From assembly GCA_963793425.1 (NCBI GenBank), contig CAWCAG010000006.1, forward strand, positions 19,199 to 83,198: a stretch of 64,000 nt of DNA, written 5' to 3'. Positions 28,121-51,871 of the stretch are shown piece after piece; position 1 is the first letter of the stretch, and every line of letters starts with the position of its first letter. The notes under the pieces are model-generated. The model ran no database searches. It was not told where the DNA came from and saw only the letters and a list, made by a program, of their open reading frames with translations. The stretch is from an uncultured cyanobacterium (lineage in GTDB: Bacteria; Cyanobacteriota; Cyanobacteriia; Cyanobacteriales; CAWCAG01). A program made the position numbers and the translations under genes.

Positions 28121-28508
28121 ATGGTAGAGAATTTGTTGGGGGAACAAGAACAGGGGAGTCTAAGGTTAAGGACACCTCTTCCTTTAGCTTGTCACCCAGC
28201 AGAAGTTTATTTAGATAGTTTGGCTCCTGGGTCTGTGTCCAGTGGTCAAGGGAGGAAAAATTGTCATTCGCCACATGAGTGCTGATGCGGTGGGTAAGAC
28301 TTTAAAAAGGTTGGGCAAGAAAGCTGGGTTAGCTTCTTTTTCTGCCCATGATTTTCGGAGGACATTTTGTTCTGAGTTGTTAGATTTGGGCGCAGATATA
28401 GTAACGGTGCAGAAGCTAGCAGATCATGCTTCTCCTGCTACTACAGCGATTTACGACCGTCGGGGGGAAGAAGTGAAACGTTCTGCAATTCGGAAAATGA
28501 AGTTTTAG
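28121..28508 (+). pseudogene. Internally deleted tyrosine recombinase/integrase
   Basis: N-terminal HPAEVYLDSLAPGS joined out of frame to catalytic C-terminus SAHDFRRTF...H...TTAIYDRR. Confidence 0.8.
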
Positions 28509-28672
28509 AGGGTATCTAGTAGTTTGTCAATTTTCAATTGACGGGTAAGGGGAAAAAATTATTGGATTTTCTGTTATTCAGCTTGGCAAAAAAGTCAAGT
28601 TCGTTTTGACCTAACTTTTTTTCTGAATAGCTCCTAAGCTAGGGATAAGGCAAAATCTACAGTTTTGAAATC

Positions 28673-28767
28673 CCTAAATTGGTCTTGTTGGAAACCAGAT
28701 GCCGACAATTGCAATTCCGCCGAGGATAGCAGGTTCACCAATTACCTAAATTGGTCTTGTTGGAAAC
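28673..28767 (+). CRISPR. Mini-array: 3' part-repeat, 36-nt spacer, full repeat; truncated leader from ~28588
   Basis: Repeat identical to arrays 1/2; 28588-28670 matches the start of the array 2 leader (39910-). Confidence 0.85.
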
Positions 28768-28786
28768 CCTTAACAGTTTACAGACA

Positions 28787-28818
28787 TAAAAAAGGTTAGA
28801 GCCTTAAGCCCTAACCTT
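28787..28818 (-). terminator. Rho-independent terminator, minus strand
   Basis: AAGGTTAGGGC-TTAAG-GCTCTAACCTT-TTTT; the G.U pair works only on the minus strand. Confidence 0.75.
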
Positions 28819-28873
28819 CAAGTTTTGCTAACACAAGGGCAAAACAAAAAGCTACTAAAATCAGTAAACTCTA

Positions 28874-28910
28874 GTTTCCAACAAGACCGATTAAAGCTAA
28901 TCGGTGAAGC
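28874..28910 (-). CRISPR. Solitary variant CRISPR repeat (candidate crRNA-like ncRNA running to ~28787)
   Basis: GCTTCACCGATTAGCTTTAATCGGTCTTGTTGGAAAC; perfect 8-bp stem; intact 3' end. Confidence 0.75.
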
Positions 28911-29048
28911 AAGTACTACACCAGACTTGAATTAATCAAAAAAAAGCTTTTTCAGTAATTCCTTAATCTAGTGCAGAACTTATGTATAACTGTAAAAGAA
29001 ACAAACTGAGCAAAACAGGTCAAAATGACCTTGATTTTTTCTCTCTAG

Positions 29049-29369
29049 TTATTTACCTGCTCTTTGCTTTTCTTGACAAAGAATCTCTAAAAGCTCATCA
29101 GGAATCTCTTCAAAATGCTCAAGCAGAAAATCCATGAACGCTAAATTCTTTAAATCATGGGGTTGGGGACGACGATAATGATGATTCCTTTTAAACCATC
29201 TTTGTACAGTAGAGTAGGAACGAGAACAAATTTGAGCTATCTGTTCATAACTAACTGACCACTTCAAATAAAACTTTTGGGGAGATAAACCCAACTCACA
29301 ATTAGCATAAAGCCTGATTAAATCTAACTCCCGTTTACCTAAAGAATCTGACATAACATTACTCCACAA
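29049..29369 (-). CDS. Cyanobacterial helix-turn-helix protein
   Basis: SYEQIAQICSRSYSTVQRWF HTH. Confidence 0.75.
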   Translation of the reverse strand: MWSNVMSDSLGKRELDLIRLYANCELGLSPQKFYLKWSVSYEQIAQICSRSYSTVQRWFKRNHHYRRPQPHDLKNLAFMDFLLEHFEEIPDELLEILCQEKQRAGK

Positions 29370-29664
29370 CTACTTCTAAATCTTCTTCCCAAGCAACATC
29401 AAACTTACACCAGGAATAGCTAAAAGAACTGCTATCTAAAAGAATTAAATAACACCAACTTCCACTTTTGAGATGTCTGGAATAACTGTAAAAAACTCCT
29501 GCAACCATTCCCCAATCAAAACAATCGTCAAGGGGAAACCAGCGTACCTTAACCCCGTAGGTAAACTTGGGTTTTTTGACTTGTGACCAGTCAATATTTG
29601 TCAGTGGTTGCAATTTTGCTAAAGGTAGTAACTGAACCACTGATGGGGTATTTTGTCCCAGCAT
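29359..29664 (-). CDS. Small hypothetical protein, SH3/KOW-like (possibly DUF1392-related)
   Basis: PKFTYGVKVRW...WGMVAG...WCYLILLD...AWEEDL; 11 bp after cas2. Confidence 0.6.
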   Translation of the reverse strand: MLGQNTPSVVQLLPLAKLQPLTNIDWSQVKKPKFTYGVKVRWFPLDDCFDWGMVAGVFYSYSRHLKSGSWCYLILLDSSSFSYSWCKFDVAWEEDLEVVVE

Positions 29665-29675
29665 ATCCTCTCCTA

Positions 29676-29954
29676 TTAAGCGAAAAAAACTTCATCATCA
29701 ATGGCATAATCTGGTTTAAGCCCCAGAACGGTAACTTTATGGCGACAAGGTTTAGAAAGGGGATAGAATCTCAACTGATCCTCCTTGGCATTTAATAACT
29801 TGCTGAGCCTGGGTAGTAACTTTTCGTACTGACGTGTATTCAAAACCAGTTCAAACACAGACTTTTGCACTCGCAAACCGTAAGCTTCCAATAATTTGGA
29901 TACCCTAGTACGGCGACGGTCATCTACAATGTCGTAGCAAACTAAGTAAAACAT
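29676..29954 (-). CDS. cas2: CRISPR-associated Cas2
   Basis: YLVCYDIVDDRRR, GLRVQKSVFE, EDQLRFYPL. Confidence 0.95.
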   Translation of the reverse strand: MFYLVCYDIVDDRRRTRVSKLLEAYGLRVQKSVFELVLNTRQYEKLLPRLSKLLNAKEDQLRFYPLSKPCRHKVTVLGLKPDYAIDDEVFFA

Positions 29955-30097
29955 TAGATAAGTGATAGGTGACAAGCATTGGTGACAAGTTAAGCTGTTA
30001 TTCCATTGGTCAACTGTTTAGTCTTACGACAAGGCTAGCCTGCGGCAACGCTACGCGAAACGCGAATAGCTCTTAGCTTTTTTGTTCTGAATTCCTG

Positions 30098-30845
30098 TTA
30101 ACAGTCAAGAAAATTGGCGTGGCATAACATGGGACGATAGAATTCTCTGATGCCCATAATGCAAGCTAAGTACTCTTTGACCTGTAACTCAATACAATGA
30201 CGATAGGTCACTTCTCCTGTTCGTAGATGCTTAATGGGACTATCTAATTTTGCTTCCCAGGCTTTAATGAATTTCCGCAAAGGTAGGGGGTAGAGATGAA
30301 TTTCTCCTTCTTCATCAGGCGAAGTAAAATTAGAGTAATTAATAATGCGATCGCTAACCAATTGAAGGACGAAAGAATCAACTAAGACTGCCCCTAACTC
30401 CAGCATCAAATTTTTCTACAGAAGATAGTGTTTGTCTTGATTCTTTCTTACTGTTACCTACTGCCTGTTGCCTCTTGCTTGCTTCTCCAAGCAGTCCCTT
30501 GAGTAAATGAGAGCGATTATGACAACTAGCCCTTAAAAGACTTTCAGTTGTTTCCCAAGTAAACTCTGAATTCTGGCAGCATTGTAACTGCTTTTGCTGA
30601 TGCTTGATAGCAGTTTGCCCAGAACTATAATAGGGCTTTTCTTGTTCGAGGAAGAGTAGAGAAATATTGAGCGAACGCACTAACTTGAGAGCTTCTTGAG
30701 AAATATTCGTGTAGCCAAAGATAATGATTTCTTCGACTTTGGTAATAGCTACTTGGTAGGAAAAACTACGTGTAGGGAAAACATGAAAGTTCGTTTGGTC
30801 AGCCTTTAATAAGGCTCCCGGTTCGGGAATATAGAGAGTAGTCAT
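30098..30845 (-). pseudogene. cas1: Second, decayed cas1 paralogue (central deletion, frameshift and stop)
   Basis: N-term MTTLYIPEPGALL and C-term LVDSFV...YRHCIELQVKEYLAC...YRPM align by eye to the Cas1 part of 32562-34535; the catalytic middle is missing. Confidence 0.8.
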
Positions 30846-31164: not shown

Positions 31165-32169
31165 TCATCTAAAACAGGTTTGTTCCAGGATATTGAAGAA
31201 TTGACCAAAACCTGCATCTAAACAATGTTTTCCTAGCATTCCTCTTGATAAACCAGTTAAGTTCAGATTCTCGACAAAGATCATCCCTACACCGTCACAT
31301 AGTTGGTGTGATAGTTTTCTGTGCCAGTCTTTACGACAGTTAGCTATGTATTCATGTAGTTTGGCTACTTTCTTCTGGGCTTTTAACCAATTATTTGAGC
31401 CAATACGCTTTCTACTGACGCGCTTTTGCAGTGATTTCAACTTGCGTTGGGCGTTAATAAAAAACTTCGGGCGCTTGATTAAAAGACCATTGCTAGTAGC
31501 TACCATTGATAGTAGTCCTACATCTATGCCTATTGCTTCTCCGTGTGCTTTATGTTGTGGTGGCTCTACGTTCCATTGAATGGTTAGCATTACATACCAA
31601 CCTGAGATACGCTTGAGTATACGTGCTTGTTTAATTTTCCCTCCTTGAGGTATTTGACGAGAGGAGCGATATTTTACCCAACCTATTTTAGGTAGGTTAA
31701 TTTTGTTGTCCTTTATCTTTTCGTTTTTGATTTGAGGAAAGACAAAGGAGCGTATACGCCCAGCTTTTTTGAATCTGGGAAAGCCGTGATTTCTCTCCCA
31801 CATTGAGACGAAGGCTACTTCTATACGTTTTAAGGTTTGCTGCAATACTTGAGAGTGGACTTTTTTTAATTCAGGGTATTCTTTTTTGGCAGCAGTTAAT
31901 GATTTACATTGAGAGGCATAAGTTGGCCTTGGTGTTTCTGTGGGGATGATGTAGCACTTGTGAAGGCTGCAAGAGTTAATCGAACAGCTACGAGATTTGT
32001 ACCAATCTTTGCGTTGTGCTAGGGCGTAGTTATAGACGCGACGATTGATTTCTAACCAGTTTTCAAAGATGTTGGTTTGTTCTTTGTTTGGTTTTAGTTT
32101 ATATTCGTAGGTCAGGTTAAGCATTCTCTTCACCTCCAACGATTAAGTATACACTTATTGTCTGACACC
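31165..32169 (-). mobile_element. tnpB: IS200/IS605-family tnpB-only element, 3' truncated
   Basis: YEYKLKP, GFPRFKK, AIGIDVGL (RuvC-I), IFVENL (RuvC-II); stops before the Zn finger and RuvC-III. Confidence 0.88.
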
Positions 32170-34584: not shown

Positions 34585-34910
34585 AAAAAGTCAATATCAT
34601 AATGACATGGTTTTGACCCTGAATAGCTGCTAAGGTAGTGAGCAAAGATTTTTCACTTTTCGTAATCGCTCTATTTCTTGCTATTACTGAGTTTCAACCT
34701 GATTTTTTGTCCTTTTATTTAGGGGGGTCAAGGAATGGCTGAAATGTCCATTCTTTCGTTGACCCCCACAAATAGCCTTCTGAGTAAGAGTTCTAGCTGT
34801 TATGAGGTGGCATTTACTGCTAATTATTATCAATTATTTGAGGGGTGAGTTGACCCCCCTAAATTTGATGGTTTATAATGACCTCATACCAAAGCTTTCA
34901 TAAGCCGAGG
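34585..34910 (+). promoter_or_regulatory. CRISPR leader of array 1
   Basis: GGGGTC/GACCCC motif triplet; highly similar to the array 2 leader. Confidence 0.75.
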
Positions 34911-35384
34911 GGTTCACCAATTACCTAAATTGGTCTTGTTGGAAACGATCCAGCTTCAACAGTACCTAACAAGGTACTAAAGGCGTTGGTTCACCAATTA
35001 CCTAAATTGGTCTTGTTGGAAACATTTCCAAACTGTTCTAAACTGTATTGTTTAGAATCGGTTCACCAATTACCTAAATTGGTCTTGTTGGAAACAAATG
35101 TAACTTGATGAGCTACTTCTTCATCAGAAGGTTCACCAATTACCTAAATTGGTCTTGTTGGAAACATTGGTTCTGAAGAACAGGCAATTGAGAAATGGTA
35201 GGGTTCACCAATTACCTAAATTGGTCTTGTTGGAAACTTCAGTCTTTTAGCCGTTGCTAGAGTTCCAGACTAAAGGTTCACCAATTACCTAAATTGGTCT
35301 TGTTGGAAACTAAAATCCCTATCTTCATTGTGGCTGCCACATACAGGGGGTTCACCAATTACCTAAATTGGTCTTGTTGGAAAC
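34911..35384 (+). CRISPR. Array 1: 7 repeats, 6 spacers (34-41 nt)
   Basis: 36-nt repeat GGTTCACCAATTACCTAAATTGGTCTTGTTGGAAAC. Confidence 0.98.
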
Positions 35385-39909: not shown

Positions 39910-40238
39910 AAAAAAGTCAAGTTCGTTTTGACCTAACTTTTTTCCTAAATAGCTCCTAAACTGGAGATGAGACAAAAATGACGGTTTTGAAATTGTCCAA
40001 TATCCTGCTAAATCTAGCTTTTAGCTTAAAAAATTCCTTGCAAATCTGTGGGGGTCAGGGAATCGCTGAGAACCCTCATTCTTTCGTTGACCCCCACAAA
40101 TCTTCTTCTGGGTAAGAGTTCTAGTTATTATGAGGTGATATTTGTTGGGAAGTGTTCTCAATTATTTGGGGGTAAATTTGACCCCCCTAAATTTGATGGT
40201 TTATAATCTACTCATACCAAGGCTTTCATAAGCCAAGG
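39910..40238 (+). promoter_or_regulatory. CRISPR leader of array 2
   Basis: Homologous to the array 1 leader. Confidence 0.75.
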
Positions 40239-40840
40239 GGTTCACCAATTACCTAAATTGGTCTTGTTGGAAACAGAACAGCCTCTAATCCCAATAGTTA
40301 GCATTAGCTAAAGACTGGTTCACCAATTACCTAAATTGGTCTTGTTGGAAACTGTCACTGTGCCGATTTCTCCAACAGCAATTTTGAGGTTCACCAATTA
40401 CCTAAATTGGTCTTGTTGGAAACCTGGTGCAGCTCTATGTATGTTACTTTTCCATCTTGGTTCACCAATTACCTAAATTGGTCTTGTTGGAAACGTTCAG
40501 TCTTTTAGCCGTTGCTGTTCCAGACTAAAACAGGTTCACCAATTACCTAAATTGGTCTTGTTGGAAACTAGGCCATCCAGCCTGTCACCTTCGGAGAAGG
40601 CTTCGTGGTTCACCAATTACCTAAATTGGTCTTGTTGGAAACACTAACAGAGATAATTCTGAAGGGGGGATAGCTCTAAGGGTTCACCAATTACCTAAAT
40701 TGGTCTTGTTGGAAACTTCCTTTTTCACATTTTCCCCCGCCATTCGAGGTGGTTCACCAATTACCTAAATTAGTTTTGTTGGAAATAGCAAAAACAGGCG
40801 CAATGGGAGTTGCAACGATAGCCGGGTTGACCAATTACTT
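40239..40840 (+). CRISPR. Array 2: 8 repeats (8th degenerate) plus a partial 9th; 8 spacers
   Basis: Same 36-nt repeat as array 1; decay at the leader-distal end. Confidence 0.97.
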
Positions 40841-50853: not shown

Positions 50854-51871
50854 GGTTCACCAATTTCCTTAAATTGGTATTGTTGGAAACGCTAGCCTTT
50901 ACTCTATCGCTATTTTGCACCGGATTGGGTTCACCAATTTCCTTAAATTGGTATTGTTGGAAAAAAAATATTAAACATCGTATTTGATCAGAATCTAGTA
51001 AAGAGGTTCACCAATTTCCTTAAATTGGTATTGTTGGAAACTGATATCTCGTAACTCCCCAATGAACAGTGCCTGGTTCACCAATTTCCTTAAATTGGTA
51101 TTGTTGGAAACATCGCCGTTGTCCCACGGGATGCCGAAAGGGACAAGTGGTTCACCAATTTCCTTAAATTGGTATTGTTGGAAACGTCGTTGCCAATTCT
51201 TGATAAATCTGACTACCTGGTTCACCAATTTCCTTAAATTGGTATTGTTGGAAACGAACGGTAGGTGCAAATCTAAAATTACCAATCAAGAAAGGTTCAC
51301 CAATTTCCTTAAATTGGTATTGTTGGAAACATTGTTGGAAACGAAGTAAACCACGCTTGTACATAGGATTCAGTTCAAGCGGGTTCACCAATTTCCTTAA
51401 ATTGGTATTGTTGGAAACATGGTGGTCGAGGCTCTTAGGGGGAATCAAAGCACGGTTCACCAATTTCCTTAAATTGGTATTGTTGGAAACACAGAATTGT
51501 ATTGTGCGTCTTCATCTTGCTTTTTGCGGTTCACCAATTTGCTTAAATTGGTATTGTTGGAAACGCGGATGTAAGATGTGTTTCCACTCCTGCCCTTCGG
51601 TTCACCAATTTCCTTAAATTGGTATTGTTGGAAACATTCAATTGGATCGTTGAAATTTTTAAATTACTCTCCCCTCTTAGGTTCACCAATTTCCTTAAAT
51701 TGGTATTGTTGGAAAACCACTTTTGGAAGTAGCGCGATCGCATTTTGATTATAGCTATGGTTCACCAATTTCCTTAAATTGGTATTGTTGGAAACGCGAT
51801 CGCATATATCTTTTGGCCACCAAGGCGAAATATCGGTTCACCAATTTCCTTAAATTGGTATTGTTGGAGAC
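50854..51871 (+). CRISPR. Array 3: 14 repeats, 13 spacers
   Basis: 37-nt repeat GGTTCACCAATTTCCTTAAATTGGTATTGTTGGAAAC. Confidence 0.98.

Follow-up and report, generated by a model that had tools for sequence, protein, structure and literature searches.

A candidate crRNA-like RNA gene at the 3' end of a type III CRISPR adaptation operon in cyanobacteria

Lone-repeat RNAs of CRISPR systems are established as regulators or inhibitors for types I, II and V. In the available text of the pertinent reports, regulators that resemble CRISPR RNAs (crRNAs) and derive from lone or paired degenerate repeats (CreA, CreR and mini-arrays) belong to types I-B, I-E, I-F and V-A (10.1101/2023.03.03.530964, 10.1101/2023.03.10.532045, PMC9458426). 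Here we analyze an element of related layout in 64,000 nt of contig CAWCAG010000006.1 from an uncultured cyanobacterium, a stretch that we call the window. The element is a short minus-strand unit, comprising one variant CRISPR repeat, a spacer-like body and a terminator, and it lies behind the cas2 operon of a locus whose genes mark it as type III-B, linked to a reverse transcriptase-Cas1 protein (RT-Cas1) and lacking Cas6. Our preferred reading, which we hold with about as much confidence as doubt, is that the unit is a selected, dedicated crRNA-like RNA gene forming the 3' end of a cyanobacterial type III adaptation operon.

As far as the accessible parts of the sources go, CreR and CreA are ectopic, degenerated repeat-like elements outside an array, with a spacer-like body and a conserved position in cas loci. 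The unit shares these properties, and both are presumably processed and bound like a crRNA. Yet CreR and CreA usually have two repeat-like elements and a body partly complementary to a cas or toxin promoter, whereas the unit has one repeat and a terminator, stands at the end of an adaptation operon in a Cas6-less type III-B locus, and showed no complementary promoter or other target in ungapped scans. A further class, the Racr RNA anti-CRISPRs, is encoded by phages and mobile elements and inhibits host CRISPR systems of several types (PMC10651486, available text). Like these and like viral solitary repeat units, which often carry their own terminator, the unit is a single repeat mimic. Unlike them it is chromosomal or plasmid-borne, sits inside the host's adaptation operon rather than on a mobile element without a cognate system, and is absent from the viral collections that we searched.

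For type III, Shmakov et al. 2023 described mini-arrays without positional conservation, enriched clades or targets, and judged them probably degraded and non-functional (10.1101/2023.03.03.530964, accessible portion). The present set differs in that its position is conserved; it also appears to be selected and keeps the cognate handle. In CRISPR3 of Synechocystis sp. PCC 6803, a Cas6-less III-Bv system, the repeat consists of a 5' stem-loop and a single-stranded 3' part, and cleavage by RNase E takes place 13/14 nt from the 3' end of the repeat, leaving crRNAs with long 5' handles that measure 42 and 48 nt when mature (PMC12464536, as far as its text was available). The unit has the same substrate layout, with a 5' stem-loop, a single-stranded 3' tail of 12-13 nt, no cas6 in the locus and Cmr-type effector genes. 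It differs from CRISPR3, which has a normal array with spacer turnover, in being a single fixed unit that ends in a terminator and whose processing by RNase E we infer.

The term 'type III' does not occur in the available text of the Racr paper (PMC10651486) or of a 2024-2026 preprint on crRNA-like RNAs, nor do 'single repeat' or 'solitary' in that of Silas et al. 2017 on RT-Cas1 systems or of a preprint on Anabaena Cas6. Our literature searches returned no description of such a unit; a mention in surveys of multicellular cyanobacteria or in preprint supplements is possible. The unit is thus apparently an undescribed, recurrent type III variant of the crRNA-like or solitary-repeat class. It suggests a hard-wired crRNA-like RNA for type III systems as well, one connected with spacer acquisition and not with effector promoters, and it offers a testable object for two questions: how RNA is made and loaded in Cas6-less type III-B systems, and whether adaptation modules have an RNA component.

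Structure and conservation of the unit

The unit and the hairpin preceding it consist of the following parts, given in the direction of the minus strand:

28912..28980, minus strand: long imperfect hairpin just 5' of the repeat, equal to the conserved region -70 to -1
28874..28910, minus strand: lone variant CRISPR repeat, the 37-mer GCTTCACCGATTAGCTTTAATCGGTCTTGTTGGAAAC, with a stem-loop and a single-stranded tail
28905-28886, minus strand: predicted stem-loop of the lone repeat, ACCGATTA/TAATCGGT
28846..28873, minus strand: spacer-like body, 28 nt, between the lone repeat and hairpin 3
28822..28845, minus strand: hairpin 3 of the predicted fold, GTTTTGC-N10-GCAAAAC, 7 bp with a 10-nt loop
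28785..28819, minus strand: predicted intrinsic terminator, a 13-bp stem (28819-28791) followed by TTTTTTAT

A preliminary description of this DNA, made from the sequence alone, had reported a solitary minus-strand 37-mer with two co-varying stem pairs and an unchanged 11-nt end relative to an array repeat, followed by about 28 nt, a 7-bp hairpin and a strand-specific U-tailed terminator, directly behind the cas2 operon. We recover each of these parts. The 37-mer is found at 28874-28910. Relative to R2 (37 nt), one of the two closely related repeats of the arrays in the window, it has seven changes (positions 2, 9, 13, 14, 18, 22 and 26), which include compensatory changes of the stem pairs 9-22 (A-T to G-C) and 13-18 (T-A to A-T), and its final 11 nt are unchanged. 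Relative to the other repeat, R1 (36 nt), it has five mismatches and one indel, with the final 15 nt unchanged. Its hairpin of 8 bp has a predicted energy of -8.6 kcal/mol, compared to -6.1 for the R2 repeat, and the 12-13 nt that follow the stem form a single-stranded tail, CTTGTTGGAAAC, which the repeats of the window arrays also have. The 28 nt, the 7-bp hairpin (28845-28822) and the terminator (28819-28791, called on the minus strand only) follow as reported, and a broken cas1, cas2, a 101-aa open reading frame (ORF) and a helix-turn-helix (HTH) gene lie upstream on the same strand.

The lone 37-mer is unique. At up to three mismatches it has a single match in the window, where shuffled sequences are expected to give none, and it occurs once in its own 5.28-Mb genome. 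Among 401 genomes sampled from the order, it was found only in its own genome and in a congener, G001, with one copy each. No ordinary array repeat of its own genome, of G001 or of the 401 genomes matches it, and a pattern that fixes its stem and tail had no matches in metagenome contigs or viral contigs. No ORF of at least 60 aa covers the unit.

The first 20 nt of the body form a 9-bp hairpin together with the last 2 nt of the repeat (28875-28854), a feature absent from the preliminary description. Overall, the 136-nt stretch folds better than shuffled sequences, with z = -3.8 in the window and -6.0 in the congener. Rfam gave only sub-threshold chance matches, to eukaryotic microRNA and small nucleolar RNA models. 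By eye, the body resembles the upstream hairpin in the same sense (TTACTGA...AGCTTTTT), but we dropped this as low-complexity.

The congener carries the unit in a syntenic locus, and its parts are conserved to different degrees. The lone repeat is identical in 36/37 positions, with C26 to A as the sole change, which is the R2 state, and hairpin 3 in 24/24 positions, loop included. The body matches in 25/28 positions, all three changes keeping pairs; the terminator shows two pair-keeping changes and one indel in the loop; and positions -60 to -1 match in 56/60. The sequence downstream of the lone repeat is thus conserved, while the spacers of the neighboring array differ. We compared this with two local estimates of divergence between window and G001:

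four-fold degenerate sites of three flanking genes: 17/96 (17.7%)
intergenic stretch nearest the HTH stop codon: 15/78 (19%)
unit, from -60 to the terminator: 11/185 (6%)

Against either comparator the unit is significantly less diverged (Fisher p = 0.003), at about one third of the neutral level. Together with its recurrence in other loci, described below, this supports the proposal of the preliminary description that the pattern reflects selection rather than decay, and we consider the unit, as judged from these comparisons, to be real and under selection. All seven substitutions in predicted stems are of the G-U/A-U type, keep the minus-strand pairing and break no pair; as a sign of RNA structure they are only suggestive. 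Shuffle and slide controls on this two-sequence structure are uninformative, because the structure came from those two sequences.

Recurrence in related loci

Homologues of the HTH protein occur in 109 of the 401 genomes. We examined 52 HTH loci, namely the window, a paralogue in the same genome (C8), G001, a plasmid of Anabaena azotica (L005), 28 loci of 3.3 kb and 20 loci of 6.3 kb. An orf101 homologue lies upstream of the HTH gene in 25/28 loci. We called a locus CRISPR-linked if cas2 or cas1 lay upstream (in L009, an array downstream instead), which applied to 18/52. A check of the region downstream of the HTH gene showed a lone co-directional hairpin with a tail after the last ORF of the operon in 13/18 CRISPR-linked loci, perhaps about eight lineages (window, G001, C8, L005, L009, L015, L017, L020, L022, L044, L049, L051 and L056). 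The unit is thus present in homologous loci and kept at this position across paralogous and orthologous modules, although the HTH proteins of modules that share it are only about 60% identical. One of the other CRISPR-linked loci, L019, is ambiguous, since its contig ends at the candidate element. In five orf101-HTH-small-ORF modules that are not CRISPR-linked (C5 of the same genome, L023, L027, L031 and L034), the unit was seen in none.

The lone elements end in GGAAAC (GGAAAG in L044), and their tails track the arrays with which they occur. The paralogue C8 illustrates this: an RT-Cas1 (57% identical), Cas2, an orf101-like protein and an HTH protein are followed by the lone repeat GTTTCCTATTACTAGGAAACCTAACAGAATGGAAAC, and about 470 nt beyond it lies an ordinary co-directional array with the repeat CTTTTCCATAACGGAAAAACTAACAGAATGGAAAC. 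Between the two, the stem is replaced and the 16-nt tail is identical. In general, the 14-nt tail of a lone repeat is identical to that of its cognate array in 12-14/14 positions, compared to only 7-16/20 for the 5' 20 nt. For the 10 variable nt before GGAAAC, 79/90 positions are identical over nine cognate pairs of lone repeat and array, a value reached by only 4/20000 random re-pairings.

A terminator-like hairpin with a T-rich tail follows 11/13 units by the rule used; in the remaining two, L005 and L051, the fold shows a stem with a longer loop and T7. The terminator stems of L005 and L051 differ in sequence and keep their pairing. In this pair the repeat is identical in 32/34 and the body in 28/33 positions, at a four-fold divergence of 43% (p = 0.013). 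A convergent array is seen in the window, G001, L005 and L017, and a co-directional one in C8, L009, L020 and L049; a convergent layout is therefore not essential. The unit abuts the stop codon of the last ORF in L005, L049 and L051.

The operon thus consists of (RT-)cas1, cas2, orf101 and the HTH gene, joined in many loci by an ORF of about 68 aa, and the unit of a repeat-derived stem-loop, the 3' tail of the cognate array, a fixed body (about 30-55 nt or longer) and an intrinsic terminator. The small ORF is conserved (M.Y.E.L.PWCIVR...ARFRRR.DA.AHLQ) and follows the HTH gene in L005 (4406-4612), L009, L020, L043, L044, L049 and L051, and the lone repeat starts at its stop codon. The window and C8 lack this ORF, which had no match to a Pfam or PADLOC family.

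Proposed role and alternatives

The preliminary description had attached a crRNA-like RNA to an RT-Cas1 type III-B variant, and this assignment is supported by the presence of RT-Cas1, Cas10b, Cmr3-6 and Csx1 and by the missing Cas6. What goes beyond layout and conservation we infer. Because the unit abuts the last stop codon in L005, L049 and L051 and has no promoter match in the window, it would be transcribed along with the operon or just behind it. The lone units have lost the repeat's 5' flank, which would belong to a preceding crRNA, and keep the part that becomes the 5' handle; the retained stem-loop and 13-nt tail would fit maturation of the RNase E type. The transcript may be cut in the tail below the stem-loop by the nuclease that matures the crRNAs of the arrays. 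For a III-B locus without Cas6 this is probably RNase E, the enzyme that acts in Synechocystis CRISPR3. The resulting RNA would have an authentic 5' handle of 13-14 nt at its start and its own hairpins at the 3' end. Since the handle is retained, we propose that it lets the product load into the Cmr complex, as a constitutive RNA without turnover.

Several observations weigh against this reading. No unit was seen in four CRISPR-linked loci (L028, L032, L033 and L043), which may hide weaker ones, as an initial search for hairpins with a minimum stem of 6 overlooked the units of L044 and L049, which came to light on reading the sequence. The 13 loci are not independent, as window/G001, L005/L051, L017/L022 and L009/L020 form pairs. 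The pair-keeping substitutions between window and G001 lie in a structure predicted from the same two sequences, and they include no double compensatory change. A scan of 28400-29200 for sigma-70-like promoters, which says little for cyanobacteria, found no site. In the window, the body begins inside a hairpin that includes the handle's last 2 nt, which is unusual for a guide. The body, which the preliminary description had taken for a guide, is conserved between L005 and L051; elsewhere its conservation is patchy, as it is about neutral between window and G001 (25/28) and fast-changing between L017 and L022, with some 9-10 changes per 45 nt beside coding DNA of about 95% identity. Searches for a target were equally unfavorable. 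The 32-nt bodies of the 13 units, compared ungapped to their own loci, gave nothing above shuffled sequences; 30-nt bodies in G270, G296 and G267 gave only self-matches at up to three mismatches; and blastn against phages and plasmids gave nothing below E = 0.3, except for a terminator-like match to a plasmid of Anabaena cylindrica.

These results bear on the role that the preliminary description had suggested, that of a regulator or antitoxin. A regulatory crRNA like CreR or CreA, whose body pairs partially with a cas or toxin promoter or transcript and directs the effector to repress it, would have the same anatomy of repeat-like element, spacer-like body and terminator, at a place in the cas locus that is conserved. 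Neither a partial nor a full target came to light, however, in the 13 loci, by ungapped scans that short seed-only or gapped pairing would escape, or in four host genomes and the phage, plasmid, viral and metagenome collections. A 35-nt body compared to the window had a best match of 23/35, where shuffles reach 24, and degenerate body patterns had no matches in viral contigs. For the 83-nt RNA following the repeat, the best match in its own genome (blastn-short) was 18 nt in a 455-aa intein-like ORF on C5. We rejected this candidate as a host target, as the orthologous site in G001 does not follow the variant of G001. Further, no small toxin candidate adjoins the unit, type III effectors bind RNA, and the regulators known so far come from types I, II and V-A. 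A promoter-targeting regulator is not supported by these results, and we regard a regulatory crRNA of this kind as improbable.

The inconsistent conservation of the body and the missing target would be expected if the unit were not a guide but a cis-acting element at the 3' end of the adaptation-operon mRNA, its stem-loop and tail serving as a processing or stability signal for RNase E (or Cas6) that, with the terminator, sets the 3' end and insulates the operon from the array. Co-transcription, as indicated by the abutting stop codons and the lack of a promoter match, fits such an element, as do the terminator, which is always present, and the array converging on the unit in four loci. A bare cleavage signal, though, has no need for 13-16 nt past the cut that track the tail of the cognate array, nor for a body conserved between L005 and L051 or a hairpin 3 conserved with its loop in the window pair, and we consider this explanation unlikely, if quite conceivable. 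The unit could also be a relic, either the last repeat of a collapsed minus-strand cas1-cas2 array or an empty integration site of leader and repeat. It sits where some relatives (C8, L009, L020 and L049) have a co-directional array after the HTH gene, cas1 is broken in the window, and the available text of Shmakov et al. judges type III mini-arrays to be degraded. Yet those four relatives have both the lone repeat and an intact array with a leader of its own. Its position is fixed across modules whose HTH proteins share only about 60% identity, the unit diverges at one third of the neutral rate instead of decaying neutrally, and its tail stays in step with the cognate array while its stem changes. 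There is likewise no sign of an ordinary array: the lone repeat is preceded by 200 nt that bear no relation to the conserved leader of the four R1 arrays or to the R2 leader, spacer turnover is not seen, the variant repeat is never duplicated in the genomes searched, as acquisition would cause, and the intact cas1 of G001 has not expanded it. A relic therefore has a low probability, in our view.

The architecture of a lone repeat with a terminator is also that of a Racr-like decoy on a mobile element, whose RNA would sequester Cmr subunits or the processing nuclease and thereby inhibit the host system, and an integrase fragment and a TnpB gene are found nearby. Both are absent from the locus of the congener, where the unit is still present, and many genomes carry the unit within the adaptation operon of the host itself. 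This location and the empty viral searches (no pattern matches in viral contigs, nothing in phage and plasmid searches) exclude a phage decoy; a decoy of the Racr kind is altogether very improbable.

Going further than a dedicated crRNA-like RNA gene, one might speculate that the unit is a dedicated RNA subunit linking the type III effector to the RT-Cas1/Cas1-Cas2 adaptation machinery, a reading that we think fairly improbable. The 5' handle would dock in the Cmr complex, and the fixed, structured body would be held by orf101, the HTH protein, the ~68-aa protein or RT-Cas1. If true, spacer acquisition would thereby be linked to interference or to the supply of crRNAs, and the unit would represent a new functional class of CRISPR-derived RNA, limited to Cas6-less cyanobacterial type III systems.

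Genes and arrays around the unit

The genes upstream of the unit and the arrays of the window are located as follows:

29017..29031, no strand: palindrome AGGTCA-N3-TGACCT, just after the HTH stop codon
29049..29369, minus strand: HTH gene, 106 aa, HTH_23, last gene of the adaptation operon
29359..29664, minus strand: orf101, 101 aa, without known family, conserved partner of the HTH gene
29676..29975, minus strand: cas2
30098..30845, minus strand: cas1, broken, its two overlapping frames covering profile positions 1-144 and 237-283
31165-32139, minus strand: TnpB gene, 324 aa, adjoining the broken cas1
28673..28767, plus strand: convergent R1 mini-array with a truncated repeat (28673-28695), one spacer and one full R1 repeat (28732-28767)
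34910-35384 and 40238-40786, plus strand: R1 arrays
50854-51871, plus strand: R2 array

In the congener, cas1 is intact (331 aa) and TnpB is absent. Past cas1 and TnpB, the window has a divergent RT-Cas1 gene, followed by genes for Cas10b, Cmr3, Cmr4, Cmr5, Cmr6, a CARF-HEPN Csx1 and a CARF-WYL protein. No Cas6 was found in the window, and a Pfam search for Cas6 over the whole genome gave one sub-threshold match, on another contig (C9); we therefore classify the locus, by its gene content, as RT-Cas1-linked, Cas6-less type III-B. Sites of the type AGGTCA-N3-TGACCT occur twice in the whole 5.28-Mb genome, and the motif, with N3 or N4, also directly follows the HTH stop codon in L009, L017, L020 and L022. 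It could be a weak terminator hairpin or a candidate operator of the HTH protein.

The HTH family extends beyond cas loci. Modules of orf101, HTH gene and small ORF also occur away from cas genes, as on C5 of the same genome (681774-682640). In L008 and L010-L014, orf101 and the HTH are fused in multi-copy ORFs, of 330 aa in L008 and about 340 aa in the others. These have up to 12 or more matches per genome and conserved downstream flanks, which suggests a mobile element. Four HTH loci that are not CRISPR-linked (L037, L038, L041 and L042) share a hairpin, GCTTTAG-TTGT-TTAGAGC, about 80 nt after the HTH gene, followed by a tail of about 20 nt ending in GAGAAC, a candidate repeat-like element.

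All four arrays of the window lie on the plus strand. The mini-array, which the preliminary description did not mention, converges on the unit and ends at 28767, only about 105 bp away. The same array has three full repeats, unrelated spacers and the usual R1 leader in the congener; as the copy in the window starts inside a repeat, it is the trailer end of an array that lost its leader end. A C-terminal fragment of a tyrosine recombinase (28242-28508) is located just upstream of it. Elsewhere in the genome, the end of C8 and the start of C2 contain the same RT-Cas1 module (identical tblastn matches, offset 26472). C2 and C3 have one R2-type array of 14 repeats each, and C2 also has a 95%-identical RT-Cas1 fragment and an R1 array. 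The copies on C2, C3 and C8 reflect either overlaps in the assembly or a partial duplicate of the locus. In the R2 array of the window, one spacer (51320-51342) opens with the last 11 nt of the repeat again (TTGTTGGAAAC-A-TTGTTGGAAAC).

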